A stretch of DNA of 62,661 bases, filler included, from Circinaria calcarea (lineage: Eukaryota), in NCBI GenBank assembly GCA_051942165.1. It is 3 parts of 3 records of this genome, joined end to end, with 100 filler letters (N's around TTAATTAATTAA, not from the genome) between each part and the next. Parts side by side here need not be neighbours in the genome. Positions count along the whole stretch, not along the records: positions 1 to 20,851 come from JAVECS010000160.1; 2 more parts are not named here. One strand, written 5' to 3'. Every line of letters begins with the position of its first letter. Position 1 is the first letter of the stretch. The notes under the pieces were generated by a model, which did not search any database, was not told the DNA's origin, and worked only from the letters and a program-made list of their open reading frames with translations. The translations under genes were made by a program, and so were the position numbers. Positions 1,102 to 57,728 of the stretch are shown here, piece after piece.

Positions 1102-2962
1102 TCAAGGTCCGATCTGTAGTTTCCGAAACCCTTCCTCGAGTTTCTCCAACTCTTGTACCACGTCCTGGTAGAAGACAGCTTGAAGTTTCGGATTGCCAAG
1201 ATCATCACCGCAACCAAAATCACAGTAGAGACATTTTTTGACAATTTCGCCGTATGTGCTACCCATCTCTCTACTTATAGAACTGACAGCACGCGTTGCC
1301 ACGAAGAACTCGGTGAGACGGTTCTCACTGTCTTGGATGTCTCTTGGTTGCTGCAATTCCCGCAAGGTCTGCGCATACCCTAGTTCTAGAAGCACTACTC
1401 CAAGGCCGAAGAGGATCGTATTACGAACGCAACTTGGTGGTGGGAAGTTTGCAGTACGATATAAAGATCCATCGGGTCCTTTAACACGAACATTCAAATG
1501 AGGCGCTGTCAAAGCAGGTGATTGCTGCGTAAGCAAGGCTTCGTCGATGCCGAAGAAATAAATCTCCTCACTTCGTAAGGACTCTTTCAGCCAGGGTGTC
1601 GCATGATATTGGAGGACAGCAGTAGCAAGTGATCGTGCAAGATGTAATCGCTCATACTGGGAAATGCGAACCGAGGGCCCTTGCTTGGATAACGAAGATA
1701 TTATTTGCTCTAGCGACGTAGCATGACGATGGTTGCGTTGAGGCGTTGACGGTGGGAAGTAGATGAAGTGTTTATAACACTCTATATCATCCAGTACCCC
1801 TAGGCATTTGTCGGTGTGCGGCAACTGCAAGACACTTCTCAACTGATCACAGAAGTTCTTCCGCGTACATAAATTCCGCAAGTTGATTGAGGGCATGCTT
1901 GTACATGCCAGAGCAGTGTCAGTGATAGAAGGGACAGTAGCCTGGAATTTCACACTCTTCTTGGTTTTCCTGACGTATACCTCCGCCGACTCATCATGCT
2001 GTCTCTTGAGCGTCTCCACTAGACTGAAATTCTGCGCATCCGACCTTATATGGTTCTCTTGGCCTTCTGTAGGATCCCCAACAATAGATTCGACGAGGAA
2101 CCATACTGGATCTCCAGGGGTTACACTACCCGACAACGTCACATGTGTGAACGCCAACTTGAACCGTACTTGCCGCGTAGACGTATTCTCAGGAGCAAAG
2201 GCCTCCAGACAAAAATGAGTGAGGTGTTCGGTATGCTTCGTGCAAGAGTTCGACAGTGCCCCGTATACATGCTTCGAAGCCTCCTGTATCAACCTAAACT
2301 TCTCAACGTTCTGGCTCAAGCCCTTCGGTGGTTTCTCAGCTTGGCGTCGGTGGCCTTCGAGTCTAGAAATCTGAGCGGAAAGGCGGATGAAATCGTCATT
2401 CAGTGATTTGAGTTCGGCCAGCGTCTCGTTGAGGCGTGATTCCGAGAAGCTAAACTTCAGCTTCTTAGCCACACGATTGCGCCACTTCTTGTCACCGGGG
2501 ATTTCTGGCTATATCTCGGTAGTGTCAGTTGGAATCCGATGATTTCTTCATTGGAGGAAGGTATACTTGACCGCTTTGTTTCATAACCTCATCCAAACCC
2601 CGGCTCTCCTTCTCAATAATGTGTAATTGCTTCGTAACCTGTACGATGATCGTCATGCAGGTGTCCTTCGAGGACGCCAATTGCTCCATTAAATGCTTCT
2701 CGATGATCGGGGAATTCCAACTGCTGTGACTCTTATCATGGAGCATACCACTGGCAACATCAGGTTCGAGAACCGACCCAAGTAAGAGACGGCACTCATT
2801 TCGAAAGATGGTCTTCTGTGTTTGAAGTTTCTGTTGGAATTGGTCCACCTTCGTTGTAAACTTGCAATATCTCACCAACGGCTTCCAACAGTCTTCGTAA
2901 TGCTCTGCAGCGGATGCTAGCAGAGGGAGGATTGTAAGTACGAATCCCACAGCTTCCGCCAT
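1102..2962 (-). CDS. HeLo-like/fungal N-terminal helical domain + C-terminal kinase-like (DUF7580-type) protein, ~600 aa, 2 exons (2962-2567, 2508-1102)
   Basis: N-terminus MAEAVGFVLTILPLLASAAEHY resembles the hydrophobic first helix of HeLo-like domains. C-terminal motifs LARSLATAVLQYHATPWL, LFGLGVVLLELGY, YGEIVKKCLYCDF and FYQDVVQELE are typical of DUF7580-type proteins. The 58-nt intron 2509-2566 (GTATAC..CTGAC..TAG) joins the two ORFs in frame. Confidence 0.75.
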
Positions 2963-3263
2963 GAAGTTGATCGGATCGTGGTATTCAAACAGACTTCGTC
3001 GCCATTCAGATACTCATGTACATGACATATAACCGCCAGACAAGGTTCTGTTCGTCCAATCATCCATTGAAGAGTCAATGAAGCCCTGTACCTGCATAGA
3101 TAAGGTACAGCAAGCATCCTTAAGGCGATTATCAAACTTTCGTCGAAGGATGCTTGCCCCTGCTGCTCCGGTGGCAAGGGATTTGTAGTTTTTATTCTGC
3201 GACGTTGCCTGATTGCAGATTATACTCGAGACGCGGGGCCAGCCGGCACAATCATAGCGGAAG

Positions 3264-6200
3264 ATGGCCATGGCATATGATACTTTGGTCTTTACCCAGG
3301 AGTGGATTGATGGGAATAATTTCCAACGTCTACCTCAAGAAGATCAAGTGGACCTGAGCTTTGCGCAAGAGTTGTATGATGCATGTATTGGATTCTTCAC
3401 GAAAGTTTTGCAGGGCATCTCCCGATCCGGTAGCGACATTGTCCAGAAGTACCAGCTTGGCACTTTGAAGGAGGAGTGGGCTCGGTTGTACTTATGGGGC
3501 AGCGGATTTGAAAATGGCAAACTGGCTGGTGTACTCGCCCAGTCAGACGAGCTACGAGACAGTGTTCTCGAACTTCTCTCGGGCACTAGCCAACTGCTCA
3601 TCCACAGTAAGCAATGCATCCACTCTTGTTTAAAATCCGTCAAGTAACAGAGATTGATGAGAGGACACCTTTTAGATCTTGCTACGAATCGTCCGTCGAT
3701 ATCCTCGGACTTGAATGTCCAAGTCGCTGAACTCAGCAGGCTCGCGGATCGATCAAGACTCATCACCTCTAGTTCTCTTAGTAACTACGCGGAGGACGCT
3801 GAATGGTTTACCATCGATGAAAAAAACGACCAGGAAAGACCAAGTTCTGCCTTGGTAAGAAGGTGTACGAAGCTGGTTGGTGAAACCGAGCTGACGGCCA
3901 AAGAGGGCAGAAACGGCTGCCTATCAGGAGCGCTCAGCGTTATCATTCTCTGCAAAGCACGATCCATCAACTTGCAATGAAGACTCTGATGCCGAAGTGG
4001 ACAGCTCGGATGAATCTTGCTCTGATTTCTATTCGACACTTCGATGTCGAATAGACTGTCTGATGGATCTACTGCCGACGATGGAGCAAAGCCTTGCGCA
4101 GTCTAGGGCAATAAGGAAAGCACCTGCATTGAGGATCCCGTTTACTGTGTCCGAGGCTGCTCGACCCTTTGTGCTCAACGTGCACGACAAGTTTAGCATG
4201 GCTGATAGCAAACTGGTCGAACGACTTGGTGAGTCCAATTGGCAAAGATACGTGACAGTCAGGGCTCGAATGAATCGAATCGCCAGCGTCAATGATGTCA
4301 ACGGGGAGACTCGTGAAGTCGAATGGACTAAGCCGGTGGTGTTTGGGAAAAACCCGCCTCAATCTATGTTCACCCCCTATTCGGTGTTTCATGATTCCGG
4401 CATGGGTACAAGCATGGCATCGACCTCACGGTATACTGCATCAGTGGCCTCTCATACCTCCTTCATCTCCAGCCAAGCGGAGGAAGGTAAAGCAACGTTA
4501 CGTGTGCCACCAACGCCCCCAGAAGTAGCTCTAAACGAGCCTTTTAGATGCTTTATATGCGGCCACATGCTCTTCAAAATCCAGAATCGTGTTGATTGGA
4601 AGTGGGTCAACTTGGAGAAGCCATCGAATAGAGGCTAAATCGTTTACAGATTACACGTTTTCGCTGATCTCCAACCTTATATCTGTACTTTCGAATCCTG
4701 TAAAAGCAAAATGCTAAAATTTCCAACGCGGAAGTTGTGGTCCGAACACGAGTTCCCTGAACATCGGCAGAGTCGTACGTGGCATTGCCCTCTTTGCTCA
4801 ACAATATCACACAGCTTCCAGGATCTCGAGGATCATCTTTCGATGAGCCATGCAGACCATATGCCCTCTACGTCGCTTCAAGTCATCCTCAACACAGCTG
4901 AGACTAAGGATGCCGAACCAATCGAAGAGCAGTCTTGCCCTTTATGCAAGATATTACCGGGGAAATCTCAGAGGACCTTCGCTAAGCACGTCGGCCGGCA
5001 CATGGAAACTATTGCGTTGGCTGTTCTCCCCAGAGAAACGGAAGACGATTCGGATGAGAGCTCACTCGACTATGCTGCAGAGGATAGTGCGTCCATTAGT
5101 GTGAAAGACGTGTTAACGGGACAAGAAGATTCTGGAAAGGAAGAAGGCAACTCGCCACTCTATCCCAGCACGTTACAGCTTCCCCTGCCTTCTCTCACTC
5201 TTAAGTTCTCATTGGAAGAAAGTAAGGAGAGCAGACGTTGGCCGAACCCAGATAGCTGCCGATTTGTGAAAGATATTGTGGGAACTTCGCTCATACGCTC
5301 AATCCAAGGACCTGAGAAATGCCCGCTAGTGACTTGTGAGCATCACAAAAAAGGGTTTGCTTGTAAACGCGATAGCCGATATCATGCTTTAGCTCACTAC
5401 GATGGCAGTACGACTTGTGGATTCTGTTCTAACTTAGATTTTGCGAAAGACGCGCCTTATTATAACCATGATGCATTCAAACGCCACCTTACTTCTGTGC
5501 ATGGAGTTGACGCAACGTCACTACCGAGTAGTGGCATCAGGATAAGTCCTAAGAAATCTGCGGCAGACGTCTCAGGTAAATGTTGTACTTGTTCAGTAAC
5601 TTTCTACAAGCCCCAGGAATTATATGATCATCTTGATGAGTGTGTACTTCGTTTCATATCGAGTCTGCCCGGCAACGAAGGGGAAAAGTGTTCTAGTCAG
5701 CATAGCGGAGCCGAAGGTACTGTGGGAATCCCTGATCCGCCAAGATCACCTCCGCAACTGCCAAATAAACCCCTTCAACGACATCCTGACGACACTGCGA
5801 TTTGGCCGCTTTCAGAAGATGCTGGCCAGGTGACGGTATCGAAAGAGCTTTCCATGAAGTCATCAAAGAGAAACAGCATTTCATCTATCCCCAACGTTGA
5901 GAAAACACTCAAAACACCCCGTGAAGCTCTAGTGCAGCCACACAGGCCAAAGGCATATGCAAATATCCCGTCGGTCCATCGACCACCGCTCGTATACACT
6001 CCTACAGTACAAGATGACAGCATACCCCGACAAACAGCTACTCGAAGCTCGCTGCACGAATATGAGGAACGGCTGGTGTCGAAGACCCAAAAAGCCGAGG
6101 AAGAAAGGAAAGAGGACAGTAGTCAGCAGCCGACATACTGCTACTGTGATGGGGGTAGTTATGGCGAGATGATGGCTTGCGATAATGCTGAGTGTGAGAA

Positions 6201-7173
6201 GGAGTGGTTTCACTTACAGTGCATAGGGTTGACGTACTCCCTGCCAAGAGACTGTAAGACTTGGCGACATTATGACAGTAGCAGTAAGCTAACTCTATCT
6301 GTAGCAAAGTGGTATTGTAGGGACTGCGTTACTAATCTGCGACCAATGCACTACGTGACTCTACAACAAGCCCAACAACAACGAGGAGCCCAAAGAGAAG
6401 CAACTCCGGATTCAATTGAAAATATAACTACCACTATCCCGGAGGCTAGAAGAGTCAGCGGACATACAGAATTTTTTATGAGACGTGAAAGTTTAGTGTT
6501 ATCGCTCATAAAAGAGAGACAGTGGAAGGAAGCAGAAAAGCTAGAAATGGAAGTTGTTACAATGAGGGAAAGCCTTTTGGGAGCAGAACATGCAGATACA
6601 CTACACAGTATGGGGAATCTAGTAAAGATATATAACGCACAAAGGAAATGGGAAGAAGCTGAGAAGCTAGGATTGCATGTAATGGAGACGAGAAAGAAGG
6701 TGCTTGGTGCAGAAAATATGCATACACTAGACAGCATGGAGATCTTAGCAAGAATATTCAGTACTCGAAGGCAGTGGAAAGAGGCTGAAAAGCTGGAAGT
6801 CCAAGTTATGGAGTTGAAACAAAAGATACTTGGCGAAGAACATCCTGATACACTTGACTACATGGGACTCTTGGCACGGACATACTTCTTACAAAACAAA
6901 TGGATTGAAGCTGAAAGCCTGCAAATTAAAATTATAAAGACGAGAGAGAGGGTGCTTGGCCCAGAACATGCAGATACATTGGACAGTATGGGCCTCTTAG
7001 TAAAGGGGTACTGTGAGCAAAAGCGATGGAAAGAAGCCGAAGAGCTGCAAACGCAAATTTTGGAGACGAAGAGGAGGGCGCTTGGCGCAGAACACCCTTC
7101 TACACGAGCCAGTATGGCGAGTTTAGTAAATATATTCTCTATGCACGGACGAGAGAAATCTGGTGAGCTATAA
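3264..7173 (+). CDS. Mosaic protein: helical N-terminus + acuF-like C2H2 zinc-finger region + KLAP1-like C2H2 fragment + ING-type PHD finger + 5 TPR repeats
   Basis: Predicted introns 3607-3675, 3855-3903 (AAG acceptor, least certain), 4602-4649 and 6254-6304 link the ORFs in frame. Motifs: CFIC..WKLHVFADLQPYICTF..C..W.EHE..H..WHCPLC..CPLC..HVGRHMETIALAVLP; YCYC..SYGEMMACDN.EC.KEWFHL.CIGL..KWYC.DC; 42-aa repeats W.EAE.L...V...R..VLG.EH.DTL.SM..L. Confidence 0.8.
6520..7149 (+). repeat. Five tandem 126-bp (42-aa) kinesin-light-chain-type TPR repeats
   Basis: Units start at about 6520, 6646, 6772, 6898 and 7024, each with W.EAE.L and LG.EH..T..SM motifs. Confidence 0.9.
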
Positions 7174-7905
7174 CCACGTTGTACAATCTGACAAGGAATT
7201 GTACGGATGGAGGATTTTTTATTCAGCGCAGGCAATTTTTCTCTCTATTTTAGATGCACTGCTCTGTTAGTGTCGCCGGATGATGGGTTACTAATCTAAG
7301 GGAGCGTAAGTTTCATATAATATTTACTATGACGTGGAGCCTTTCACCTTTCGATTTAATAAGGCAGGCGTTTTATGGATGCTATGTACCGACACTTCTC
7401 AACGTTTTTTACCGCTATTATTTTAGATACTATCTGCCCACTCTATTACTAGAATGAGATGAATTAATATGGCGAAGGAGCAAGCTGAGGAAGAGGGTTT
7501 GGAGGTTGAAAAGGGAGCGAATGCCGAGAAAAAGGATGGTATGTGTGACTACCAAGGTCAGTATCCCAAACCAAACCCCTTTTCAGCACTCATTCTACCC
7601 TCCTAGGGTACATCTCTTATCTTATCCTTTAACGCCCTCAGAATATGTCTTCCTAATCAAACCCTATGCAGCAAGCTCACTTCTTCCCAGGGCTGCCAGT
7701 AGTCCGGACTGCGAACACAGTCAGTCCACCTTAACAGTCCAAAATGTGTGTGGAAATTGCAGGCAAGTGAGGCGTTGACTAGGAAACATATGCGCGCGTG
7801 TCAATCTCGGCTACGTGCACGCAGATCTTTATTTAACTTTGTTCTTGCAGTCAAGCCTAATGCCTTTTCTGGCTTTGCTAATAGGAATAACAGGCATGTG
7901 ATCAC

Positions 7906-12174: not shown

Positions 12175-15100
12175 TTAGCTGGCGTTGCGTGCTATTGATA
12201 TTAATCGCTTCGAAGCTTGGATACTCCTCTTTCTGAACAAATGCGTTTCAGATCCGCTCTTGACAGAGCTATCCTTGTCGCTTCCACTCCTAAAACGAAA
12301 GATTCGCTTCGCAGTAGATACCGGTGTAAACTTGGGCCCCTTTTCTGGTTTCGTTGGAATTGAAATGAGGCCGTCAGAGTGGGAGTTTGTTTTAACTTGA
12401 GATGTAGTCGATTCTAGCGAGTACATCATCGGTTGCGGTAAAGATTGAAGAGGACCCCATGAATTAACACGATTGGAGAGTGGTATAAACTGAAAAGAGT
12501 CTGCGAAACGCTCGAGGAGGATTGTGGCTAACGCTGTTTCAGAGCCTGATCTGTGTTCGTCAAGCACATTGTTTTCAGAATTATCGTGAGACGAACGGAC
12601 ATTTGCGCCCGCTCTGAGAAGTTGTGCTGTGGCTGACTTGTTTTGGGTTACAATAGCTGCTTGTAAAGGGCTTCCGAAGATACCAGCTTGCATATGAATG
12701 TCGGCTTTGCCCTCAAGTAACATCGTCATGATTTCTTTCTGCCCGAAGAACGAAACCTGTTGTAGCAGACTACCAAATAAGTTATCTCTAGTGTTTATAT
12801 CAGCCCCTGCTTCTAGTAGTTCACTTATGATTTGTACGTCTTCTGTACGTAGCGCAAGTTGTATAGAAGAATTCAGGACTTCTTGCGAGACCTTTCCGGT
12901 AAGACCACAGTTTAGGAAAAGGCGTACAATGGCTGGATGCCGGCCTAGTATCGCGGCTCTCATTGCATTACCAAAGATGCCCCCTTCTTGATGCACTTTT
13001 GCTTTCCCATCGAGTAAAAGCTCCACCACTGCCTTACTACCAGCAAACGAGGCTGCTTGTAATGCGGTACCATGGAAACCACTTTGGTCATTTATAGGTG
13101 CAGCGTAATCTAATAGCAACCGTACAAAGGTCTCCTGAGAGCTCGCAGCAGCTTCACGGAGTGCTCGCCCTAGAATATGTGTATCAACCTTTTTCTCGGT
13201 CAGGATGTTTCTTAAGCTCTCCTGATCACCGTCCACGACTGATCGAATCACTTCACTTTCCACCGAAGTCTGGAACGGTGAGCTCCAGACATAGCCGAGA
13301 TATTTGCTCTCGGAGGTCGATCTCACTTTAGGCCCAAATAATTCGAGCAACTCTCGCTGCATTTCCCCTTCCACTAGGGGTCGATTCTTCTGCAATTCTT
13401 TGACACTAGTCAAAGCTCTCAAGGTCCATGAAGTATATGGATGCTTTAATCCGAAGCACTTTTCTTGACTGCTTGAAGCTTGATCCAACAGGACCTCCGC
13501 ATCCTTCAAATATCCTCGCAACGCATAGACTGCGCTAAGACTTCTCATTGTGGTCAATGTATCTGGATGATGATTTCCAATTCGCATTTTCTGCATTTTT
13601 AAGATTTGCTTAAGTCGCAGACTAGCATCATCATATCGCTGCTGAAAGCGTATGTAGTCGGCAAGCCTACGAGCAGCTTTCAGGCAGTACGGATGGTCGG
13701 TTCCTAGCGTTTGCTCCAAGCCGTCAAGAGCATGACGGCTTATCGCTTCAGCACCTGGCATATAGCCTGTCCAAGCGAGTATAGCAGCTAAATCGGACAT
13801 GCGGTTCAATGTAAAAGGATGCTTGTCCCCATAAAGGCATATTGACTTTCGTACAACATCACAAGACAAGAACTCCGCTACACCGCTCGGTTCGCAGTCC
13901 AACGCGAGCTTCGCCAAAGTGTCAAGAAGCTTGACATGAGAGACTTTATCGGAAATGGTGAGATCCGCATTTTCGAGAGCATCCCGTAAAAGGTTGTACG
14001 CATCTTGATGTCTACCTTGACATCTCATACTCAACACCAAATTGTCGGCAGTCAATAAAGTGGGGTCTGATGCTATACCAGAAATCCTAATCCTTGCGGT
14101 CAAACAGCTTCTGCTATAAAGTTCCGCGTCCTTGCATTGGTCACGGTTGCGTAGCATAGAAGCCAGCTTATTCAAGCAGAACAAGGTAGCCACATCAACT
14201 GGTCCAGGTGACTGCTGTTCTCCGAATAACCTCACTGCTCTCTGGAACTTTTCTTCAGCTTCCTTATAAAGACCCTGGTCTTCAAGTGCCAACGCAAGTT
14301 GGCTAAGGTCTCTAGCTTCAGGGCTACATTGCGTCGAGATGATCAACAATTTGACTGCTCTCTGGAATTTTTCTTCGGCTTTCTTGTAATGACCCTGATC
14401 TTCAAGTACTAAAGCAAGTCGACCAATTTTTCTAGCTTCAGAGCTACCTTTCGTTGAGACAATAAATTCTTCACAGCCATCCGGCGTGGTTGGCAAGTTT
14501 CTGAGGCGGCCGTGTAACTTAGGCCCCGGAAAGTGTCTCAAAAGCACCTTCATGCTATCATCGGCTAAGCAGTACATGCTCCTCATACTCTGCATCACAA
14601 TCTGGTAATTCGTACTGGAGCCTGCTAAGAACTTAGTCATATCAATGTGGTTGGCGTACAACCCTATAGCATCACAGTGTGGTAGAATAGCAGATTTCTT
14701 GTTGACAATCTAGGAAGAACAGTTAGAATAGACAAAAAGAAAAAAAAAGACTTTACACGATCGTGGGCTGTCTTACCATAAGATTGTCAAGGACTGGCAG
14801 AAGCTCGTAATAGCAGATAATCTTTCGGGCAAATGTTTCATGAGGAAGCCACTTGTTGAAGCTGTCGCTTATATAGCCTAGCTGTGACATATACCTATCT
14901 CCTGAGATATAGGATGTAGATTTATTTCCGAGGGCATAGTCGATGTTAGACATAGCAGCTGCAAACTCTATCCAGTCTTTCTCTCGAAAACCGAAACTGG
15001 GAGTACCGAAAAACATAATACCCTTGATGGATGCCCGTAGAGGAGAACCGCATTTCAGTAGGAAAGCTTGCAGAATTAGCCCTCCTAGGCTATGAGCAAC

Positions 15101-15539
15101 AAAGATAACAGGTCGTTTTTCCTTATCAAAATTCGTTAGTGTGAGTTTTCTGGACTTTTCAAGATTGACGGACATTCTCCCTTTTCTTCTCGAAGCCTTG
15201 GAGCAGAGCACAGGACGCATCAGAAAAGGATTTCCCTTCCCGAATAAAGCTTCTGGCATCATACCCGCAAGTAAAAACCCGCGCATATGGGATTTCATTT
15301 GGAAGTAAATCTCGAATCCAGGGTTCTCCATCACTACTCCAGGTGGTTTGCCAATTGCATGTGATGCCGTGCACAAAAACCAAACTAAGTTTTCATCAGC
15401 TCAAAAATCTATAGGTAACCCGAGATGCCTACTCTATCGCAACAGCATTACCGTTCAACGGCTCTGCGATGACTTCCACAGCGTTGATATCTTGGGGAGG
15501 CTGTGCTGTGGCTTCGGAGTGAATAGATGGCAGATCCAT
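12175..15539 (-). CDS. SesB-like alpha/beta hydrolase + TPR + ankyrin-repeat protein (NLR-like architecture without NACHT/NB-ARC), 4 exons
   Basis: ATG 15539 (MDLPSIHSE..); introns ~15385-15432, 15122-15173 and 14710-14776. Hydrolase motifs DLVFVHG, WIRDLLP, ARVFTCGYDA, PVIFVAHSLGG, GIMFFGTP, CYYE, ANHIDMTKF. Then TPRs (YGDKHPFTL, LGTDHPYCL, IGNHHPDTL, FGLKHPYT) and ankyrins (GTALQAASFAGSKAVVELLLD, GSPLQAAI). Confidence 0.85.
14234..14446 (-). repeat. Recent 120-bp tandem duplication of one TPR unit
   Basis: 14234-14326 and 14354-14446 are closely similar at nucleotide level (EARKIGRLALVLEDQGHYKKAEEKFQRAV vs EARDLSQLALALEDQGLYKEAEEKFQRAV). Confidence 0.9.
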
Positions 15540-15777: not shown

Positions 15778-16360
15778 ATGCTGATAGGTTAATACCATGT
15801 TATCGTTGAAGAATGCGTCCGCCACAAAACGAAAAGGGTATGAGCTGACACAGTAAGTCAATTATTATATAGGCTGTGTGCCACACCTTTTATTTAAATG
15901 GGCCGATTAGGAACAGCGACATCATGCATAGTAATATATAAGTGGAGAATAAGTATTCTGCTCAACGTGCTGATAGGTTAATATTATAGTAGGCTGTGTG
16001 CCACACCTTTTATTTGAATGGGCCGATCAGCGGAACAGCGCCATCATGCACAGTAATATTTAAGTGGAGAATAAATATCTTGAACCATTCCGCAAGGCCT
16101 TATTGTCGCCTTATTTTCGCCTTATTTTCGCCTTATTTTCAAGAGCCTCCAATTCTGCCTTATTATTAGGAGAGGTCCATTAGATAGTGCTGATAGGTCA
16201 ACATCATATTAGGTTGTGGGACACACCTTTTGTTCAAATGGGCCCATCAGCGGAATAGCGGCATTATGTACAATAAGATTTGGGTGGGTCCCGAGCTATT
16301 CTGCAAGGCTTCATTTTCAAGAGCCTCCAATTCTGCCTTATTACTAGGAGAGGTCGATGC
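15778..16360. repeat. Degenerate triplicated repeat in the divergent promoter region
   Basis: Core AGGCTGTGTGCCACACCTTTT..AATGGGCC at 15871, 15991 and 16211. TGCTGATAGGT(T/C)AA at ~15779, ~15968 and ~16188. TTTTCAAGAGCCTCCAATTCTGCCTTATT twice (~16136, ~16314). GCCTTATT(G/T)TC x4 near 16097-16140. Confidence 0.85.
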
Positions 16361-16451
16361 ACAAGCTTTGTTCGAGAGAGCACGAACGCGCCAAATTGAA
16401 AGAAGGTCTCGGGGGCAGCTTTCTCGGCTTCGCCTAAACTCGATCGAGGGA

Positions 16452-19142
16452 ATGGAGCATTTGCGCGACGATTACAACGACTTCACCTTCCCTTACAAAG
16501 TTCATCTGCTCTGCGACCCCTCAGCTCCGCTACTCGACAGGCAGGAAAGGAATCTGAATGATTTCGTTCAGTTACCTCAACTACTTGGGTGGAAGATTCA
16601 TGAAAATGGCGATAGAGAGTTCGAAAACGGTTCGTTGTTGATCGACGAGGTGATGCAAAGATGGCTCTACTTCGAGGTCCTAGCACAAGTCTTCGGCCAT
16701 CTTCCCGGCTACCAGTGGGATCACTTTGTTATAATTGACACTTCTGGCCAGTCTTACATCAATACGCTGCAGCTACCAGATTACCTAGAGCGATGGTTGG
16801 ATAGCGAGAAGAAGAGTCCCACCACGGAAAGAAATCGCCGATTAATCCGTATTCAGCAAGTACTGGACAGAGCGCGCGTGTACGTGTCACAGCACTGCAC
16901 AGTTCCAAATCTTGACAGCAACGCTAGATGGGAGATTAGTGACCTTCTTGCACTGAGTTTTATGGTCTTGGGAGAGACTTTAACGCGAGCACTGAATCTG
17001 ATCCGAAGGAAAGTCGGGTTCAGTATTAATGGTTGGTGCAGCCACGACTCGCGCAATCAAGGGTGGGGCTACAGCAAGATCATACTTCAGAAGCTCAGAG
17101 CCGATGGATGGTGTGCCAAAGCGCTTCATATGCTCCAGGCTTTACTTAGAGGCAATACTATTGGTCTTGTATACTTATTCACACTTAGGGAATCGAGCTC
17201 CAAAGGTGGGGATCATGCAAAATGCACAGCTTCTGAATGCCGAGAGAAGGAATTTAAACGCATACTGGGAAGGCCGGTCGATCCAGTCCAATATCACCAT
17301 TGTTCCGCTGAAATCAAAGACTTCTGCTTCGAGGAGCCAACGCAGTACGTAGGACCTGGTCAGACACCCAAGTATCCCATCTGTACTACAGTGGAGAATT
17401 TCAAAGGCGATATTGAGGGCCGAGCCCTAGCTGCAATCATCGATAAAGGAAAAATCCCACTGTTTCGGTTTCAGAAGACCCGACGGAGTCTTGAACTTGT
17501 CGAAATGAGCCAGTCATTTGACAAGTCGTACGCTATCTTTTCACACGTCTGGGCGGATGGCTTTGCTAATTTGAACAATAAAAACGAGATGAGCCTATGT
17601 GTGCTGAACATGTTCTCCAAGATACTGGAACAAGTTGCCATACAGCGGGCTGGTACTAGCTCACCAGTGCAAGAATTGTTCTGGATCGATACGCTTGCGA
17701 TACCAGTACAGGGAGAGTTCACGGCGCAACGCTTCAAAGCTATAAGTCAAATGCACAACATATATACTCATGCCAAATATACGATAGTTCTTGACTTGAG
17801 TCTCATGCGGGTCACTATGGGCTCCGGCTATTCAAATCCTGCCATGAAAATAACCATGAGTAAATGGATGACACGGCTATGGACTTTGCAGGAAGCTGTT
17901 CTAAGCAAAAATCTGTTCTTCTATTTCCAAGATCACATTTACTCGATGAATAATCTTGAAGATATGTTCGCCAAAGAAGACTCTGAGCTTCACTCTTGTA
18001 TACCATCGCTTTCTCGAATTTATCATGATGGTATCCTCGGCCAAATGCGACCAAAAATACATGAGGAGTTTCGGAAGGATGAAGGTTGGAAACCCAGGTC
18101 TGACTTTCTTGCTGCAGTCTGGAAGGCTACCCAATGGAGATCCACTTCACATCTAATCCATGAGACTCTGTCTTTAGCCACAATGCTCAATGTCAATACA
18201 GAGCTCTTCGCACCTCCAAGCATTTGGCCAGAGAAGACAGAAGGTTATCAGCAAGACTGTGATGAAAGGATGATCTCTCTTCTATCTCTCTTTGCGGCCA
18301 TATCGCCTTGTCCAATTCCGCCGGGTATGATTTTTCTTCCAGGTCCCAGACTGTTGAAAAATGGATATGGCTGGGCTCCAAGGACTTGGCTGTCATCTCG
18401 TGAAATTGATTCACCGGACCCTCTTTCTCTGCCTGATGCAGGAAATACACGACTAACCGCATCCGAAGGCCTCGAAGTACAATTTCCTGGTTTCTTGCTA
18501 CACGATTTAGGTGATAGTAGAAACGAGTTAGATATGCGCGAAAACTTCTTTTTCTCTGCTGACTCTAGACTTCTAGACTGGTACCGTGTCGAACCTGCTG
18601 AGGACCCGAAGCGTTTCCCAGGAGCGGAGAGACTCCTCGGACGTGATCTTGCAATAATCGTGTCTCGTCTACCAGTTGTAGACCTCAGAGAGATTGCTCT
18701 TTTCGTTGCCATTAAAAGAACCTGGGGTGGTATTCACTACGTGGAGATACCCAACCGGGTGTGGATCAGTCGAGAAGAAAGGCAAGAAATGCTGCAGGAA
18801 TGGAGCGACAAGCATCGCAAGGGCGATCCTGATGCGATGTCTGCCGGAGAAAGGCTATCGCCGAGTGAGAAGTGGTGTGTTGATGGTCCAACTCAGCCCG
18901 CCGTGGTGCCAGGAGAGGAGAAGAGAAAAGGAGATGCCCAAGGCAAAAAAGAAGCCCAGTTCTCTGAAACCAATGACCTTGGAAACGGCAGACCAAACCG
19001 CGTAGAAGCGCCAGAACCTAACAATTGGCTCGTACGTAAGGCGAAAACCTTGACGTGGAGCACTAAACCGTCAACGACTTCACGCTGGCAACGTTACAAA
19101 GCCAACAAAAACGTTGCTGTTGGAGATGGAGGTTACCCATAA
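16452..19142 (+). CDS. HET (heterokaryon incompatibility) domain protein, ~896 aa
   Basis: HET motifs YAIFSHVWADG, LFWIDTLAIPV, AISQMHNIYTHAKYTIVLD and SKWMTRLWTLQEAVL. N-terminal QRWLYFEVL and GWC motifs, and C-terminal WAPRTWL, fit this HET subfamily. ATG 16452 chosen because the upstream open frame lies within the promoter repeat. Confidence 0.88.
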   Translation: MEHLRDDYNDFTFPYKVHLLCDPSAPLLDRQERNLNDFVQLPQLLGWKIHENGDREFENGSLLIDEVMQRWLYFEVLAQVFGHLPGYQWDHFVIIDTSGQSYINTLQLPDYLERWLDSEKKSPTTERNRRLIRIQQVLDRARVYVSQHCTVPNLDSNARWEISDLLALSFMVLGETLTRALNLIRRKVGFSINGWCSHDSRNQGWGYSKIILQKLRADGWCAKALHMLQALLRGNTIGLVYLFTLRESSSKGGDHAKCTASECREKEFKRILGRPVDPVQYHHCSAEIKDFCFEEPTQYVGPGQTPKYPICTTVENFKGDIEGRALAAIIDKGKIPLFRFQKTRRSLELVEMSQSFDKSYAIFSHVWADGFANLNNKNEMSLCVLNMFSKILEQVAIQRAGTSSPVQELFWIDTLAIPVQGEFTAQRFKAISQMHNIYTHAKYTIVLDLSLMRVTMGSGYSNPAMKITMSKWMTRLWTLQEAVLSKNLFFYFQDHIYSMNNLEDMFAKEDSELHSCIPSLSRIYHDGILGQMRPKIHEEFRKDEGWKPRSDFLAAVWKATQWRSTSHLIHETLSLATMLNVNTELFAPPSIWPEKTEGYQQDCDERMISLLSLFAAISPCPIPPGMIFLPGPRLLKNGYGWAPRTWLSSREIDSPDPLSLPDAGNTRLTASEGLEVQFPGFLLHDLGDSRNELDMRENFFFSADSRLLDWYRVEPAEDPKRFPGAERLLGRDLAIIVSRLPVVDLREIALFVAIKRTWGGIHYVEIPNRVWISREERQEMLQEWSDKHRKGDPDAMSAGERLSPSEKWCVDGPTQPAVVPGEEKRKGDAQGKKEAQFSETNDLGNGRPNRVEAPEPNNWLVRKAKTLTWSTKPSTTSRWQRYKANKNVAVGDGGYP

Positions 19143-28609: not shown

Positions 28610-30058
28610 ATGCCATATAACACTCGCCGTAAATCGCTCTCCCTGCCTGCTCTGGGCATCCAGCTGCCGAATGGCTCACGCGCTCACCGCCCTTCGCCGC
28701 CAAAGTCCTCCGCCGCCAGCGAAGCCCATCCGCCTCCAGCAAAGAAAGTCAAACGCTCACATACATCATCGACACCGTCGCCTACTTCACCATCGCGATC
28801 GAGATCATCAACTACGGCCTCTACCAAAACGGTCTCGTTCGTGGAGCGGCCCAAAAGCAGTGGTCGAAATGCATACGAGCACACGCCTCCGCCTTCGCCC
28901 GGCGCAGAGGAGGATGCGAAAGTTGATACGGAGGGAATCAACGACGATATTGTAGTTGGTGTGATCGAGCAGCTGGAGAAAACCGGGAATCGGCCACATC
29001 TGGTCAAGGAGCTGGCCGCGGTACTCTCGAATGTGAACGATGCAGTTGCAGGGTAGGTCGACTTGCTAGACCTGGCTTGATCGTTGCTCCTTGTGGAAGT
29101 GGTCATATACTTATGTTGTTGCAGTTCTGCCAACCCTGCTGCCCTCCTTTCGTCTCGTCTGGCCGCCTACATGCGACGTTCTACCTGGACTCCACTTTGT
29201 CCATGTCCAATTGGAAAAGAGCTGATCCCCGTTCATCCACGTAAAGTGTACTACTTCTTGACGACAATAAAACGCCAAGAAATGCCCATTGGCTCTTCTG
29301 GCATTCTATCCATACCGTCGGTCGGCGTCGTAGGTAGTGGTGGTAAAGGGGGTAAGAGGATAATATCCCCAAGTCTCAGTAACGCCAGTATCGATGAGGA
29401 TGTGGAAGGTATCGAAGATCGAAAACGTGCAGCTATGAGTCCGAGTCCAGAGGTCGATTTATCAGATCCCGATTTAGGTGCCACTGTACCCGGTGCGGAC
29501 GACGAATTCACTCCTTCAACGCCTGCAGGGTCATCTTTCTCCGCTCGCTCAAGTTTGGCGCGAGATGGTAGCTGCGGGGGCTCATCCGAGCCCATCAACC
29601 TCGCACACAACCATCGAGGTGCCACCCCACCTCTCGAAGGCGATGAAAAAGAATTCACGCAAACAGCTAGTAGCATGCGGATGAGGGGAATGAGCTTGGA
29701 TGACTCTACTATCAGACAGTCAAAGGAAGTTGAGATTGCCATTACAGGAATCCAAACCGATATGCATCTGGACGAAACCGAAGAGGAAAAGGTGAAAAGG
29801 AACAGCGAGGTTGCCGCAGCCCTTTTTGGTGGCCATCACCACCAAGCGCAAGAAATTCCGCTGGCACTGATGAGCAGCCCGCTCGTGAAACCTCTGCACG
29901 CTACCATTGCCAATCAGTTTGGAAAGGAGAATATTGACATTGAGATGGGAGAGACCGCATCGATATTGGGAGATCAAGGGCTTGGTTCCAGCTGGGATAT
30001 CAAAAAGCCGGAGAACGTGGATCTGGACGAACTGGATGCTTTGTTGGGTGGTTTCTAA
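28610..30058 (+). CDS. GDS1-like winged-helix domain protein, 2 exons
   Basis: MPYNTRRKSLSLP start; DDIVVGVIEQLEKTGNRPHLVKELAAVL..SANPAALLSSRL..YMRR..PIGKELIPVHPRKVYYFL; intron 29053-29124; acidic C-terminus PENVDLDELDALLGGF. Confidence 0.8.
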
Positions 30059-34318: not shown

Positions 34319-37300
34319 ATGAGCTTCCCTCCTCTTCACCCGCCTTCTCAGAATTCCATTGCTTCTGGTGCCCCGAAATCTACCAGCGCAGGATCGGCGA
34401 GGACTCGACAGTCAGCCTGGGGGCTGTCTGCTCAGACCGCTGGTGCTCGTCGTGGTTTACCCCCTTTGGCTACCAACCTGGGCGCTTCATCCGTTGAGTC
34501 GTCTGCGCGTCGGCAAGGCGCATCCAACAGTCCTTCCATCAACACCGTCTCAGCCTCACCATTCGCTCCCAGTTTCTCGTCTGTCCTGAATTCGTCCAAT
34601 CGAGTGAACCCTAGCCGAAACACCTCGTCCGCTTCCTCATCGACTCCTCCCTTCACACCGCTTCAACCTGGATCACAGCAGCTCTCTCAGAACAGTCAAT
34701 TACTGGCCTCTCCGCGATCTCGGACCAACACACCCTTCGCCACGTCCAACTTGGCGCCCACCGCTGCGGCGTCCAATACTGCGTCGCAGGGAGGAGGAGG
34801 TGGGAGTAGTGGTGGTGGGCCTAGCTCAAGACCTGCCACATTTTCACCTTCTTTATCACAGCAAACCCTAAGCTCTCCAACCACCGCAACGTTCGATCGC
34901 ACCTCTTTTACTTCGCTAGCCTCCACATCTGCTACTTCAAGTCAGTCTTCTGTGTCCAAAATCGTGGTTACCCAGGTTTTCCTCCTTTTAGGTTCCATTA
35001 CAGAGAAAGAAGGTAAAGCTAAGTGGGACTCCCAAGCTGATGCAATACGAAAGGTGGGCTACACATCCCTCTACTCTTCTCACGTTTCCTGGAAGTACTT
35101 CTGAGCTTTGGTTGATAGTTTGCAGCTGGTAGAATCAAACGGCATGGACGTCTTTGCCAAGTACTTCCGCCGATTACTGGTCGGAAACTCACCTCAGATA
35201 TTTCCAGGTGTGAATAGAAATGTCGAGAATCCAGGAAACTACCAGTTACTGGTGCAGGAGATGGAACGGGTGACTCAAGACCCCGAGCAAGGGAAGAAGA
35301 TTGCGGAAACGATTGATACTTCTGAGGGAGATATATTTCGTGACTTTGACCTTGCAACGTTCATGAATCACTTCAAACTAGATCCTGTGGCCAAGACGTT
35401 GCTGGCCTCATCGTTTACCCAAGTGACAAGGCCAGATCTAAGGACCAAAGGTAAGTTATAGTGTTGCCGATTAATGAGAGATTTCCTCTGATACTGTCTA
35501 GCTGGGTCGATCCTCATCAGCAATTTCCCGTTTCTATTACAAAGTCTTGCGAACTTCCATATTCCGGAGCATGATAATACCCCATCTTTACTGGCAACCG
35601 CCGCTTTTCGATTCCTTCGAGATCTTCCTGAAGCTTCTAGGGATGGCACGGAGAAAAATCGGATATATCTTACGCTTCAATCTCGTTACGCAAGGCAAGG
35701 CATCCCTGTGCCTGCCGTGATCCGCTCAGCAATGGCCTTGACAGATTTGCTGGAGTCAAGACACGAACTCGCCAAAGATTTGCAGAGACATGGGCCTGGT
35801 GTCACAGCAAGCATCGAGACTGCAAAGGATACCCTACGTCGTTATTCTAGAATCGACCTTGATGAAGAACAGATTTCGGGGGCTCTATTGTTCATGGTCC
35901 TTACCCCAGACTGGCAACTCTACCGGCCTAGCATCTTCGTGGCGGCTGTCCGGGACCTTCTCGGGACAGATTTCAACTGGCAACAAGTTGTTCGCGGTTT
36001 CGACCGTCACGGTCTTACAGTCACGCCAGATCAGTTCTTGGTACTGTTCAATGCACTCCTACCAATTGCCCAAGATGACAAAACTTTTGATATACAATCT
36101 CTCTGGGGAGGGCAGTGGGAGTATCCCACAACACAGCTTTCATTTGTTCTAGCATTCACGTCACTACCGCCATCGCAGCTGGACGCGACTTCCATCCCAA
36201 GGCTACGGAAATCTTATGATCCCGATGATTGTCTCGATGGGCCGGAACAAGTAGTGCGATTCATCGATGAAGCACACCGGAATACTATGATTTCAGTGGA
36301 TGCAGTTGTAGCCTTTTTCGATATCGTCTGGGATGCTGATGAATCACCAAGTCCAGAGGATGTTGCTGCGGCCAAAGACGTTATAAGCGTAAGTATGGGG
36401 TACTTCCTATGTTCCGCTGCTGGTACCCCTAAACCTTGGACACCCAGTAAACATTCAATCATGGCCAAGATGATGCTGCCATTCCTCCTCAGACAAGAGG
36501 AAATCCATAGCTTCGTTCTCCACTCACTATGGAAGCAGGATAAGCAGTGGGTTGCTACCAGACTCATCGAAACTCATCTTGAGGACCCCATAAAGCTCCC
36601 CATCTTACTCGACCATGCGCAGGAACATGGCTGGCTTGAGGATCTTTGTACGATGATGAATGGATTCGGCATCGACTTGGCTGCTCTGGCTCATCGTAAA
36701 GGTTACATTGATATTGATCAATGGGCACAGGAGAAATTAGCACGCGGTCCGGGTGAACTTGCAATGGCGATATCCAAGTTTCTTGTTATCAAGGCCCAAG
36801 ACGAATTGCGAACTGCGCGACGAGAGCAGCCTGCTGCGCGTACAGTCAGCCTTGCCATGAAGACTGTTCATGCTATGCTAGTATTCCTTGAAGAGCACAT
36901 GAAGGATCGAATGGATGAGCTCATACTTCTCGAACGGCAATGTGTAGGAGCGTATCCCAGACTAATCAACTACGGCGAAGGTTACGATGATCTGATCGAG
37001 ATTAACAGTGAAAGAGGCAATTCTTTACTCCCCTCAGCCGATGCTGAGATGCAAGAGCTATACAGGAAAATGTATAGCGCTGAACTAGAGGTCCGGAGCA
37101 TTGTTGAAGCTTTACGGGAGTATAAGACCTCGCCCGAGCTGTCCAAACAAGATCTGTTCTGCTGCATGATCCACGGACTCTTTGACGAATATGTCTGCTT
37201 CAACGAATATCCTGATGGGCCATTGGCAACTACGGCAGTACTATTTGGGGGTATTATCTGCTATGGCTTAGTTTCAAACATCACACTTCACGTCGCTCTA

Positions 37301-40300
37301 GAAATGGTACATGAAGCCGTCAGAGAGTATGGTCCGGAGACATCCATGTTCAAATTTGGACTTCAAGCCCTTCTCAATTTTCGAAACAGGTTACAGGAAT
37401 GGCCCGAATATTGCAGCCAGCTTGTCCGAATCCCTGCTCTTCAGGGCACAGAGATATACGAATTGGCGCAACAAGTATTGCGCAGCAAGAGGGACCTGTC
37501 AGGTGCCAATGGCGTTGAGGGACTTGGTGATGTTATCAACCTTACTAATGGTGATTTCGACGCCTTCATTTCTTCGGATCTCAGCATGCAGAGATTCAGA
37601 TCTGTGAATGCAGACATGGATTCCCACGAGGAATATTATGAAGAGCCAGAGGAGGAGGTGCAAGATAAAGTACTCTTTGTCCTCAACAACATCTCGGAGC
37701 AAAACATCAATGCCAAAACTACCGACCTGAGCAATGCACTAGACGGAAAGTATCACCGTTGGTTCGCATCTTATCTGGTTGAACAACGTGCAAAACTGCA
37801 GCCCAACTACCAGCAACTGTATTTAAACATGCTGAATCTGCTAGGGGACAAGAAGTTATGGGTTGAAGTACTTCGTGAGACGTACGTTAATGTTCAGAAA
37901 GTCATTAATGCCGAGTCGACCATGGCCTCGGTCCTTGAACGAACGCATTTAAATAATCTAGGGACTTGGCTTGGATCTTTGACGATCGCCCGGGACAAGC
38001 CAATTAAGCAGAAACACATCTCTTTCATGGACCTTTTGATTGAAGGCTGGGAGACACAACGTATGATGTTGGTCGTACCCTTCACTTGCGCAGTGCTAGC
38101 TGAAGGTACAAAGTCCGTGGTTTTCAAGCCTCCAAACCCTTGGCTTATGGAGATATTCAGCCTCCTGCTTGAGCTGCACGATACCGAAGGGATAAAGATC
38201 AATCAGAAGTTCGCGATCGAGCTCATGTATGAGAAATTTGGGCTTGACAAACATGGAAAAGGGATACTGAAATCCGGGATACTTACGACTCGGAAAGAGA
38301 TGTATCAGTCTAATCTGGCTGGACCGATGATGTCCGATGGTATTGACGGCTTTGAAGACCTTGGCCTTGGGAGTTCGGAAAAAGGGCTTCGTAACGCGAG
38401 GTTCTCCCCAGCTGCCATCGCTTCCTCGTTGCCAGATCTTGAGAACTTGCTCAGTTTCCCGCCGTTGTCTGGGAGTCCTGCTGCTCAGGCTCGTTCACGC
38501 CAGGCTGTGCAAGTTGCGGTACAGCGTGCAATTGCGGAAATTGTGGCACCCGTAGTTGAACGCTCGGTGACGATAGCAACACTTGCTACCGCTGCTTTAA
38601 TCACCAAAGATTTCGCACGTGAATCGGATGAAGATCGGGTCCGACAAGCCGCCCAAAAGATGGCACGAGCGTTGTCTGGCAGCTTGGCCTTGGTCACCAG
38701 CAAGGAACCCCTTCGAATGAGCATGACAAACTTTATTCGTCTAGCGCAAAACGAAGTAGCTGATCAAGCTCTCCCAGAAGGGGCCATACTAATGTGCGTC
38801 AATGACAATCTTGATACCGCCTGCGGTGTAGTTGAAAAGCAAGCGGAAGAGAGATCGATTCCAGAAATTGAACCCCATATCGAGAACATGATAGCATCAC
38901 GCCGGCAACATAGGCAGGATTATCCCACGGAACCCTACAGAGATGCAGCTTTCAGCCCATGGTCTGGATACATCCCGGAGCCTTACAAGCAACTGGCTAA
39001 CGGTCTATCGCCGGAGCAAATGGAAATATACTCGCAATTTGCCCGCCAGGCGCGTGGATCAACTAACCACATACAGACATCATCAACTGATAGCGGTAGA
39101 CAAATCCCTGACGTACTGCAAGAAGCCTTTCCATCCATGCCTAATCTTCCAACTCCATCAGAACCACCAGCCTTACCTCATCAGGCGGCCCAGCAGCAGC
39201 AACAGTCACAGGGTCGTATGCCGCCTCAGCAAGCCGTAGCTCAACGCCCTCAGCCTCAGGTAAACGGCTATATGGACACTAGGACAATTCAGGACCACAT
39301 ACAGGAGATGATTGCTGAACTTAATCACTTGAGTAAGAGCGCCTCGGAGAAACGGTTCAAAGAACTGAGTCGGGATAACAGTGTTGTTGATATTATCGGG
39401 CGAATACAGCATCTCATCATGGCTTCGAGTCCGAATCATGACAACGTAGCCCTACTCACGGCGAGCGCTGTTTGCTCGGTACTAAATGGTATCACTACTA
39501 ACGGTTTAGAGGTGGAGGTTTTCACCCAACTACTTCACAAGCTATGCCACATTTCACTGAACACTGCCAAAGAAGTGATACTACTATTCCGAAACCAGGA
39601 TGATGACAAGATACTCAATACACCGGTAACGGCCGCCTTGCTCGAGATTGGCCTGATGGAATTTGGCCATGTGGATATGGCGTTGACCAGAGCGATGCAT
39701 CAACAGAAGGTTGCTGCGATCGAATGCCTGTCGAATCTGTTGGACCTTCTGCTATTCACCGATCACCCTGTCGCCTTACGTGCTGATTTTGCAAGCAGTC
39801 TCGGCGCAATGGGACAGTGGCTTGCTCAGCAACCAGATCTTGCCATCGCAAAAGATGTTCAGTCAAGACTAAAGGATGCGGGAATTCCGGAAGATCTCGA
39901 CCTCAGCCTAGGGGACCAATCGCTGATCCAGCAAAACCAGATGCAGTATGTCTTCTCGGAATGGATCATCCTGTGCAGTCACCCAGAGCCAAATGATGGA
40001 ATGTTTGTGGCCTTCATATCGCAACTGCACCAGCGACAGCTTCTCAACTCGCAGGATGAAATGGTTGTGTTTATACGCCTCTGCATAGACTATTCAGCAG
40101 AGACTCTTGAACGAGAGGAGCAGCTTACAGCAGATCCTGGCGATATGTACTTTACTATCGACGCTCTGGCCAAGCTCCTCGTACTCTTGGTCAAGAATCA
40201 AGGCGAGACCTATGGAGCGGTTAAAGGCAATAAGCCATCCTACATGAACTCTCTTCTATCATTGATAATACTCATATTGAACAATCATCATGTGGTGCGC

Positions 40301-41621
40301 GGAGAGCAGTTCAATCAGCGCATGTTCTTTCGGCTCTTCTCGACAATGCTATACGACTGGTACGATTTCGGTCGGGTGGATAGCAGTCAGGATAAAGAGA
40401 TGGCGTTGGTTTTCGCAGAAAACTTCCTGCTTCTCGAGCCACACTCTTTTCCAGCATTTACATATGGCTGGTTAAATCTGATATCACACCGAGTCTTCAT
40501 GCCAGCCATCTTGAAGTTGTCGGATGATGAGGTTAGTCTCTAGGCTTTGCTTGCCCGTGTACCTTTATCTGCTGATGCTAGTCAGGGCTGTGAACCGTTT
40601 GCGAAAATCATAGAGCGCATGCTTTCGTATGTCGGTGAGCTCCTAAGATACCCAACGGTTGCCGGAGTCGCCAAGGAGCTGTACAAAGGTGTTCTGAGGA
40701 TCTTGCTGGTTCTCCATCACGACTTTCCAGAGTTCTTGGCGGAGAACCACTACCGCTTTTGTAACATCATCCCAGCCCATTGCGCTCAACTTCGAAACTT
40801 GGTCCTTAGCGCGTATCCATCATCCATTCCAGAGCTACCAGACCCTTTCACCTCAGGCCTGAAAGTTGATCGCCTAGAGGAAATCAGAAAGGCGCCGAAA
40901 GTAGCCGGGGATACCATCTCGCCGCTTCGCCATGGCAGCATCAAAGACATCATCGATCGTTCGGTGCAGGGCGTTGATATTTCAGATGATAACATCACGA
41001 AAATTGCCGAAGCGGCTTATATATCACCGAGAGGAGCAGAATCGCCCCATTCGTCCTTAGCTATTGATTCAGTTCTCCTCCATGCTATTATTCTTTACAT
41101 TGGCCAGACTGCAACTTCTGGATCTGGGTTCAAAAACGGCCCTGCCTTTACTCCAGAATCTCCCCAGGCGATCTTGATGAAACGATTGACAAAAGAGTTA
41201 CACCCCGAAGCTCGATACTACTTCCTAAATGCTATCGTCAATCAGCTACGTTATCCAAATAGCCATACCCATTACTTTAGTTACGCCCTACTGCACTTGT
41301 TTGGTAACGATCATGCAGATCAGCAGGAGTCCGATGTCCGCCAACAGATCACTCGTGTCTTTCTCGAGCGACTCATAGTGCATCGCCCACATCCTTGGGG
41401 ATTGATTATCACTCTACTAGAACTGCTAAAGAATCCAACCTACGCGTTCTGGGAACTCCCTTTTATCAAGGCTGCGCCGGAAGTATGTAATTTATTTCAC
41501 TACATCCTCCGCCCAAAAAATCTAGGCCCTTGTCCCAACTGACAGCGTTTTTGTGCAGGTGAAGAAACTATTCGAAGCTCTCTTCCAGCACATTAACCAA
41601 GACCCACGCGCTTTGGCTTGA
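34319..41621 (+). CDS. NOT1: CCR4-NOT scaffold subunit Not1, 5 exons
   Basis: Introns 35054-35125, 35451-35501, 40532-40585 and 41483-41558. Motifs CMIHGLFDEY..YP..LATTAVLFGGII, FKPPNPW, LHHDFPEFL, NQLRYPNSHT, ERLIVHRPHPWGLIITLLEL. Confidence 0.98.
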
Positions 41622-56938: not shown

Positions 56939-57728
56939 GCCAATCTTGTAAGTCCTTCGATTCACGAAAAGTGTAAAGACAAAAGTAGGGGATATAAATA
57001 ACGGTGATTTCAACATATGAATTTCATAGGCTGGTGAGGCTATTCACTGCGGATGTTTCACGTCATCCCGCAGGGAATAAACGCAGCCGCCCAGCGCTTA
57101 GGATATCAAAGTCACCTCACAAAGACAATGTCGCTGATGACCAGGTCAATAACTACCCTACTGTACTGAGTAATCAAAATTAAACTTGTCTGTGGGCTTT
57201 GCTGATTTACTCAAATGTGCTTTTCAAGTTGTTATGAGTATGTGAAATGCTATGCGTAATCCCTAGCCACATAGAACCGGTAAAATTTTTATATGCGGTC
57301 CCTTTCCTTCTAAAATTTGCCATCTTTGAACAAGCACAAGACACGGGAATGTTTTCAATTACAATTAATAGAAAGAGCAATGTATAGATGTTCATTGATC
57401 GGGTAGTGAAGGTTAATCGTCGGCCCTACTCTTCGCTCACGGAAGCAAATCCGAGCGCATTTTGCCCAACTCGGAATCGGCTTGGCGTTGAAAGGATACA
57501 GAGAACAGGAAGGAAAAAGAAGGAAAAAGGATTGTGCAGTTGGGCCATGTGGTGTTCGCATGGACATAATTATTTATGCGTGGATTCTTGGGAACCTAAA
57601 TCATTGAGGTAGGTTTACATTGGTTATTGGAATGTACTATTTCAACATGGGTTCTTGGTCGAATGGTCAGAACTTGCTAATAAATACTTCCCAGACCCTT
57701 TCCGGATTGGACGGCTGTGTGTTCGACC

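Follow-up and report, generated by a model that had tools for sequence, protein, structure and literature searches.

An ING-type PHD finger, probably captured together with its intron, in a zinc-finger/TPR gene of Circinaria calcarea

Within a 62,661-nt stretch of DNA from Circinaria calcarea (the window, which denotes the whole of that stretch), a gene on the + strand at 3264-7173 joins C2H2 zinc fingers, a plant homeodomain (PHD) finger of the ING type and tetratricopeptide repeats (TPRs) in a predicted protein of 1230 aa. All coordinates are positions along the whole stretch, and the gene lies in the part drawn from JAVECS010000160.1 (1-20,851). The PHD finger is divided by a phase-1 intron, and the explanation that we favor, and hold to be probable, is that an ING-type finger with a real intron was captured by exon shuffling into the zinc-finger/TPR gene. 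This explanation is carried by the class of the finger, its intact zinc ligands and cage residues, the one reading frame that it shares with the domains on either side, the homology of its intron to an intron of ING genes, and the recurrence of such fusions in the family of the host gene. No new mechanism is involved; what is new is a domain architecture built from known parts.

Class and integrity of the PHD finger

Bases 6133-6252 encode six zinc ligands within the motifs TYCYC, SYGEM, ACDN, EWFH and LQC, and bases 6307-6327 encode KWYCRDC. When the intron at 6254-6304 is removed, the T at 6253 joins the CA at 6305-6306 to form a Ser codon directly before KWYC, and the spliced peptide has the spacing C-x-C-x10-C-x4-C-x5-H-x2-C-x14-C-x2-C, that is, C4HC3 ligands with ING spacing. 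A phmmer search of PDB sequences with the 56-aa exon-1 piece of the finger placed ING-family chains (ING1-5, Pho23, Yng1, Yng2 and Png2) in all of the top 20 positions, at E-values from 3.8e-14 to 1.9e-9; for PHD fingers of non-ING classes, matches to the same piece began at E 1.3e-3, with NSD3 and Spp1. The resemblance is far stronger than chance would produce. An alignment of 22 ING-type fingers has 17 invariant columns, and the window's finger agrees with every one of them. In an ungapped alignment with the ING4 finger, four residues are the same in both: Tyr (in TYC), Ser and Met (in SYGEM) and Trp (in EWFH). A preliminary description of this DNA had placed an ING-type PHD finger at 6133-6327 with the Y, M and W of its cage retained, and both statements agree with these results.

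According to a passage of PMC4225485, the cage that holds histone H3 trimethylated at lysine 4 (H3K4me3) in ING2 consists of W238, M226 and a Tyr (printed as Y315), and a passage of PMC3395697 describes Tyr215 as critical for binding. Judged from the conserved motifs, these numbered residues would correspond to the motif positions in the window. By its sequence, 6133-6327 encodes a complete PHD finger that is genuinely of the ING type, a class of H3K4me3 readers.

When 1.84 billion representative sequences were searched exhaustively with phmmer, 3823 matched the finger at E <=1e-3; among the single-finger matches, only the window's own open reading frame (ORF) was more than 75% identical. A word-index search with a 45-aa piece of the finger (lengths 'longer') likewise gave the window's own protein as its sole candidate. 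Structure, Pfam and Atlas checks of the gene were run on unspliced pieces; for the unspliced stretch of 97 aa, modeled in AlphaFold2 from an alignment of 24 rows, the mean predicted local distance difference test (pLDDT) score was 47.6, too low for the model to be of use.

Homology of the intron to an intron of ING genes

The intron, the fourth of the gene model (6254-6304, +; 51 nt, GTAAGA..CTAAC..TAG), lies in phase 1, one base into the codon after the 10th residue past the sixth zinc ligand. It separates a first part of the finger (6133-6253, +), which carries zinc ligands 1-6 together with the four cage residues (Y, S, M, W) and ends one base into the junction codon, from a second part (6305-6327, +), which in the spliced reading supplies the rest of that codon and KWYCRDC with zinc ligands 7 and 8. 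Its boundaries, the CTAAC motif at 6289-6293, the spliced peptide and the 17 in-frame, stop-free codons are as the preliminary description had given them.

For comparison at the DNA level, a sample of 80 metagenomic loci encoding ING-type PHD fingers was assembled. A GT..AG intron exactly 10 codons and 1 nt past Cys6, as in the window, was present in 45 of these loci, and 31 were contiguous through the finger with no interruption; the other four (L035, L036, L044 and L080) were placed in neither group, the stored sequence of L035 ending inside the finger. In length the 45 introns range from 48 to 127 nt (median 56), and all of their 42 distinct sequences contain a CTRAY branch motif. The window's intron is equal to them in position, phase and size class.

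A protein-level sample led to the same site. Among 149 database matches, 14 had several fingers or none, and the 135 single-finger matches that were kept include many unspliced ORF calls. The finger is continuous in 65 of the 135, with a last loop of 12 (34 proteins), 13 (5), 14 (22), 15 (3) or 17 (1) residues. In the other 70 the call is broken within the finger, and 62 of these have [GSCR][KEMTR] at residues 11-12 past Cys6, a signature that is the product of reading through N|GT-AAG/GAG/ATG. The corresponding residues in the window read CK, which fits the signature, and the Cys6-Cys7 spacing of 14 residues fits the intron-bearing classes. Full-length members of the intron-bearing, best-matching classes were scanned for the ING N-terminal domain PF12998, and it was found in nine of 11 (class A: P0137, P0225, P0242, P0168 and P0238; class B: P0218, P0158, P0197 and P0205); it was not detected in the other two proteins scanned, P0140 and P0196.

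Taken together, these comparisons support homology between the window's intron and a widespread Pezizomycotina ING intron of identical position and phase. Because retroposition would have removed the intron, whereas here it is kept, the finger appears to have come from the genomic DNA of an ING gene, and the shared intron and loop length point to a donor of the intron-bearing, 14-residue-loop type. Capture at the DNA level, intron included, had been proposed in the preliminary description; the 45 of 80 loci and the 62 of 70 broken ORF calls now argue for it. The same description singled out the in-frame, stop-free state of the intron. That state is real, but it is ordinary rather than special: 15 of the 45 ING introns are multiples of three and 10 of those 15 are also stop-free, while 11 of the 70 broken ORF calls return in frame to the closing W-[YF]-C-x2-C, mostly as AKWYC.

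A 14-residue loop also occurs without an intron in the DNA of 14 loci (L020, L023, L025, L031, L034, L038, L039, L043, L051, L059, L061, L064, L067 and L079), so that the ING intron was apparently lost, or never gained, in some lineages. These loci offer a possible handle for dating the capture.

Gene model and architecture

An 844-codon stop-to-stop ORF at 4639-7173 (+) holds C2H2 fingers, the PHD finger and the TPRs in one frame. This shared frame, the Pfam TPR_10 match and the C2H2 homologues uphold the earlier statement that the PHD finger stands between zinc fingers and TPRs. In-silico splicing of five exons (3264-3606, 3676-3854, 3904-4601, 4650-6253 and 6305-7173, +) extends the open frame to 1230 codons, from an ATG at 3264 to 7173. 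Intron 1 (3607-3675, +; 69 nt, GTAAGC..TAG) contains an in-frame stop, and intron 2 (3855-3903, +; 49 nt, GTAAGA..AAG, with a CTGAC branch motif) has the least certain junction; both were placed from frames and splice signals only. Intron 3 (4602-4649, +; 48 nt, GTGGGT..CAG) splits an AcuF-like finger and contains the stop that divides ORFs 3895-4638 and 4639-7173. Its junction, NRVDWK|LHVF...DLQPYIC, agrees with the annotated homologues P0026 and P0007 (Lambiella, Thelotrema).

The predicted protein begins with an N-terminal helical region, followed by an AcuF-like C2H2 region that forms the first cluster (4540-5034, +; PFRCFICGH to HMETIALAVLPR), as delimited by alignment to PF26082-annotated homologues. 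A second C2H2 cluster (5233-5508, +), recognized by comparison with P0002, P0003 and P0007, has a degenerate first finger. A linker of ~120 aa leads to the PHD finger, which occupies residues 902-949 of 1230 in the spliced model, and the last ~280 aa include five TPR_10 repeats (6493-7152, +; Pfam TPR_10 E 6.2e-46, 5 stretches). The TPR_10 array is 49-53% identical to the arrays of fungal TPR, NB-ARC and NACHT proteins.

Pfam gave no match to NACHT or NB-ARC in any exon frame of the gene, and no match to PF12998 at E <=0.1 in four scanned frames that together span 3258-7173. Tandem Repeats Finder reported no array in 6300-7300, which indicates that the TPRs are not recent, near-identical copies. 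When parts of the gene were compared with the window by tblastn, no second ING-type finger was found.

The host gene belongs to an AcuF-like family

Over the zinc-finger half, the closest proteins, those of lichen-forming ascomycetes among them, carry precomputed PF26082 (zf-C2H2_AcuF). Membership of the window's gene was assigned by alignment to such PF26082-annotated proteins, as the precomputed PF26082 of P0026 was itself absent from the Pfam scan; an Atlas look-up of P0026 gave PF26082 clusters at 0.97. Homology over the AcuF fingers was seen with P0026 (E 2e-142, residues 9-607) and P0007 (E 5e-106). P0026, from Lambiella insularis, and P0003, from C. calcarea itself, have the N-terminal region and both zinc-finger clusters in common with the window's gene and differ from it in the C-terminal module. 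Across the family this module is highly variable: its C-terminal partners include Myb (P0003), Rsc7, GATA, DEP, DEK_C, BAG with annexin, RRM, HMA, PP-binding, kinases, ankyrin, TPR, NB-ARC, NACHT and, in P0026, a finger of the PHD_5 type. That finger (PF20826) belongs to another PHD class, whereas the module in the window is an ING-type finger with TPR_10. The AcuF-like family (P0002-P0095) looks like a domain-shuffling hub in lichen-forming and other ascomycetes.

On these alignments the host is a modular AcuF-like zinc-finger gene, and neither a NOD-like receptor (NLR) nor an ING protein. It shares with the ING family (human ING1-5, yeast Yng1, Yng2 and Pho23, and S. pombe Png2) the C4HC3 ING motifs and all cage residues, and with the intron-bearing Pezizomycotina classes of that family the 14-residue last loop and the phase-1 intron. 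ING proteins, however, have an N-terminal PF12998 domain and a PHD finger at the extreme C-terminus; the window's gene has neither, and the remainder of its protein is unrelated to them. The term 'immune-like gene', used in the preliminary description, holds for the TPR_10 array alone, which is of the fungal NB-ARC-TPR receptor type; the host is AcuF-like, and NACHT and NB-ARC are absent from it.

ING-type fingers recur in the family

The 525-aa protein P0274 is colinear with the window's gene through the linker, the PHD finger, an 18-residue intron read-through, the pre-TPR linker and the TPRs, of which it has six (38% identity, E 2e-82). Among the fingers compared, the closest to that of P0274 is the window's, at 61%. 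Six of the read-through residues common to both lie on splicing signals: CK on the 5′ splice site, KL on the branch site and VA on the 3′ splice site. Because so diverged a protein has the same order of parts, the PHD-intron-TPR arrangement is apparently older than the C. calcarea genome.

Other members of the AcuF family carry ING-type fingers at other places. In P0022 and P0028 the finger lies between both zinc-finger clusters and is not colinear with the window's; in P0116, known from a single 906-nt contig, it follows right after the first cluster, shows the intron signature as well and is 93% identical to the fingers of ordinary ING-type ORF calls. We read these cases as separate recruitments of ING fingers by the AcuF-like family, probably at least three in number. 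None of the 80 metagenome loci is an orthologue of the fusion, as the zinc-finger, linker and TPR parts had no tblastn match among them at E <=1e-4. Our literature searches found no description of ING-type fingers in AcuF, TPR or NLR-like fungal proteins.

ING-like fingers were also seen in non-ING proteins among P0096, P0097, P0098, P0110 and P0156. One of these five, of 288 aa, has 4-5 tandem fingers; one of 7046 aa has 23 matched stretches; one combines three bromodomains with two fingers; and one combines a SET domain with two fingers.

Donor, competing explanations and predicted function

Several observations weigh against capture of a functional finger from an intron-bearing ING gene. 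A maximum-likelihood tree of 136 finger segments over 41 columns has no support at 82 of its 131 inner branches and no supported clade containing the window's finger, so that a phylogeny with ING genes, which the preliminary description had proposed, speaks neither for nor against an ING origin. By path length in this tree the nearest rows are intron-bearing fingers; by plain identity the best matches (66%) are intron-less fingers with a 12-residue loop. The nearest zinc-finger relatives lack a PHD-TPR tail in their protein calls: P0002, which is homologous to residues 201-864, ends ~20 aa short of the finger position, and P0003, at 58% identity, has a Myb domain in place of PHD-TPR. In the window's gene, the first finger of the second C2H2 cluster (5233-5320, +) is degenerate, reading RRWPNPDSC...SLIRS where homologues have RCPNP.C...AH.LTH. 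The finger of P0274, finally, has lost Cys7 and Cys8, and two of its four cage residues are changed (Ser to Cys and Met to Ile), which suggests that it is dispensable or decaying in at least one relative. As to the donor paralogue, the E-values of full-length class A, B and C proteins against Yng1, Yng2 and Pho23 in PDB lie close together; our impression is that the GSYG, ACDN and KWYCRDC motifs of the window's finger resemble class B.

The losses in P0274, which is the only colinear homologue found, also bear on whether the finger is a decaying passenger, shuffled in without a selected function, or even part of a gene that is as a whole a young pseudogene, in which case its intactness would mean that too little time has passed. 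The degenerate C2H2 finger and the free exchange of C-terminal modules in the AcuF-like family would fit such a history. We nevertheless consider it unlikely. At just 38% identity to P0274, the window's protein retains 8 of 8 ligands, 4 of 4 cage residues and 17 of 17 ING-invariant columns; its 1230-codon frame with four canonical introns is intact; and at least three recruitments of ING-type fingers by one family would be surprising for a useless module. An artefact of the gene model, in which the finger was joined to the zinc fingers and TPRs by accident and belonged to another, short gene or to a frame that is not expressed, is very improbable. The sole database gene call for the window (P0001) is indeed an unspliced ORF call, but the stop-free 844-codon frame covers fingers, PHD and TPRs, and P0274, from another record, repeats the linker-PHD-TPR order.

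The composition of the gene and its surroundings could also suggest an integrated bait, in which the finger would imitate a chromatin reader of the host and signal interference from a parasite or non-self factor, the TPR array and the remainder of the protein serving as an immune-type sensor. The TPR_10 array is of the fungal NB-ARC/NACHT plus TPR type; AcuF fingers are joined to a P-loop module (NB-ARC or NACHT) in P0027 and, by its listed domains, P0093 is a further NLR-like member; and neighboring genes encode HET, DUF7580 and TPR-ankyrin proteins. Fungal NB-ARC/NACHT-TPR receptors, however, have a nucleotide-binding NOD domain, by which they are defined, and a known N-terminal effector domain, and in the Pfam scan both are missing from the window's gene. 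Its TPRs are not near-identical (Tandem Repeats Finder detected none), and the partners of the family are mostly chromatin or nucleic-acid domains (Myb, Rsc7, GATA, DEK_C, RRM, PHD_5). A look-up of the terms C2H2, zinc and PHD in the main text of two surveys of fungal NLRs (PMC9815663 and PMC4986451) found none of them. A bait thus has little probability, well below that of a passenger.

Under the explanation that we prefer, exon shuffling rather than retroposition, the finger would have been copied as genomic DNA from a Pezizomycotina ING gene with the donor's intron kept, and would now lie across the junction of exons 4 and 5. The gene is presumably expressed and intron 4 presumably spliced out; the spliced finger is predicted to bind H3K4me3 tails, and once bound it would keep the zinc fingers and TPRs, as a scaffold, at active chromatin, where the TPR array might recruit protein partners. 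Because ligands and cage are intact, the long frame is intact and recruitment is repeated, we give about an even chance to a working H3K4me3 reader that tethers this scaffold to active chromatin. Repeated uptake of ING fingers suggests a functional affinity of AcuF-like proteins for H3K4me3-marked chromatin, which provides a testable hypothesis of the role of PF26082, a large Ascomycota family of unknown function. Few clear fungal cases of exon shuffling are on record in which the captured domain still contains the donor's intron; here the origin of the domain is marked from within, by the shared position and phase of that intron.

Plant NLRs with integrated domains carry a domain of a cellular pathway set beside a repeat sensor domain. 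The window's gene shares this layout of a domain beside repeats but lacks the defining NB-ARC. A broader and quite speculative extension, to which we attach as low a probability as to the bait, is that the AcuF-like family is a modular surveillance system of fungi. Its chromatin-reader modules (ING PHD, PHD_5, Myb, Rsc7 and DEK_C) would serve as integrated baits or sensors, linked to TPR, NB-ARC or NACHT domains of the NLR type, and would stand guard over the machinery that reads H3K4me3. Intron 4, in frame and conserved in its length of 51 nt, would then allow a retained-intron isoform with a disabled finger, as a regulatory switch. If this were true, the AcuF-like system would be to fungi what NLRs with integrated domains are to plants.

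Neighboring genes in the window

Directly upstream of the PHD gene, and divergent from it, lie two adjacent ORFs (1102-3013, -), the larger of which has a DUF7580 domain (E 5e-21). Downstream are a TPR_12/TPR_10 and ankyrin gene (12175-15400, -), whose TPRs are 25-26% identical to those of the PHD gene by tblastn, and an ORF of 981 codons that encodes a heterokaryon incompatibility (HET) domain (16197-19142, +). With these DUF7580, TPR-ankyrin and HET genes, the first 20 kb appears rich in incompatibility or NLR-type genes. Elsewhere the window contains a gene with a GDS1 winged-helix domain (29081-30058, +), a protein kinase gene (50014-53792, +) and a zf-C2HC5 protein gene (55292-57043, -). 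The gene for CCR4-NOT subunit 1 (Not1; 35492-41542, +) consists of two same-frame ORFs split by a stop at 40541-40543 that is presumably intronic.

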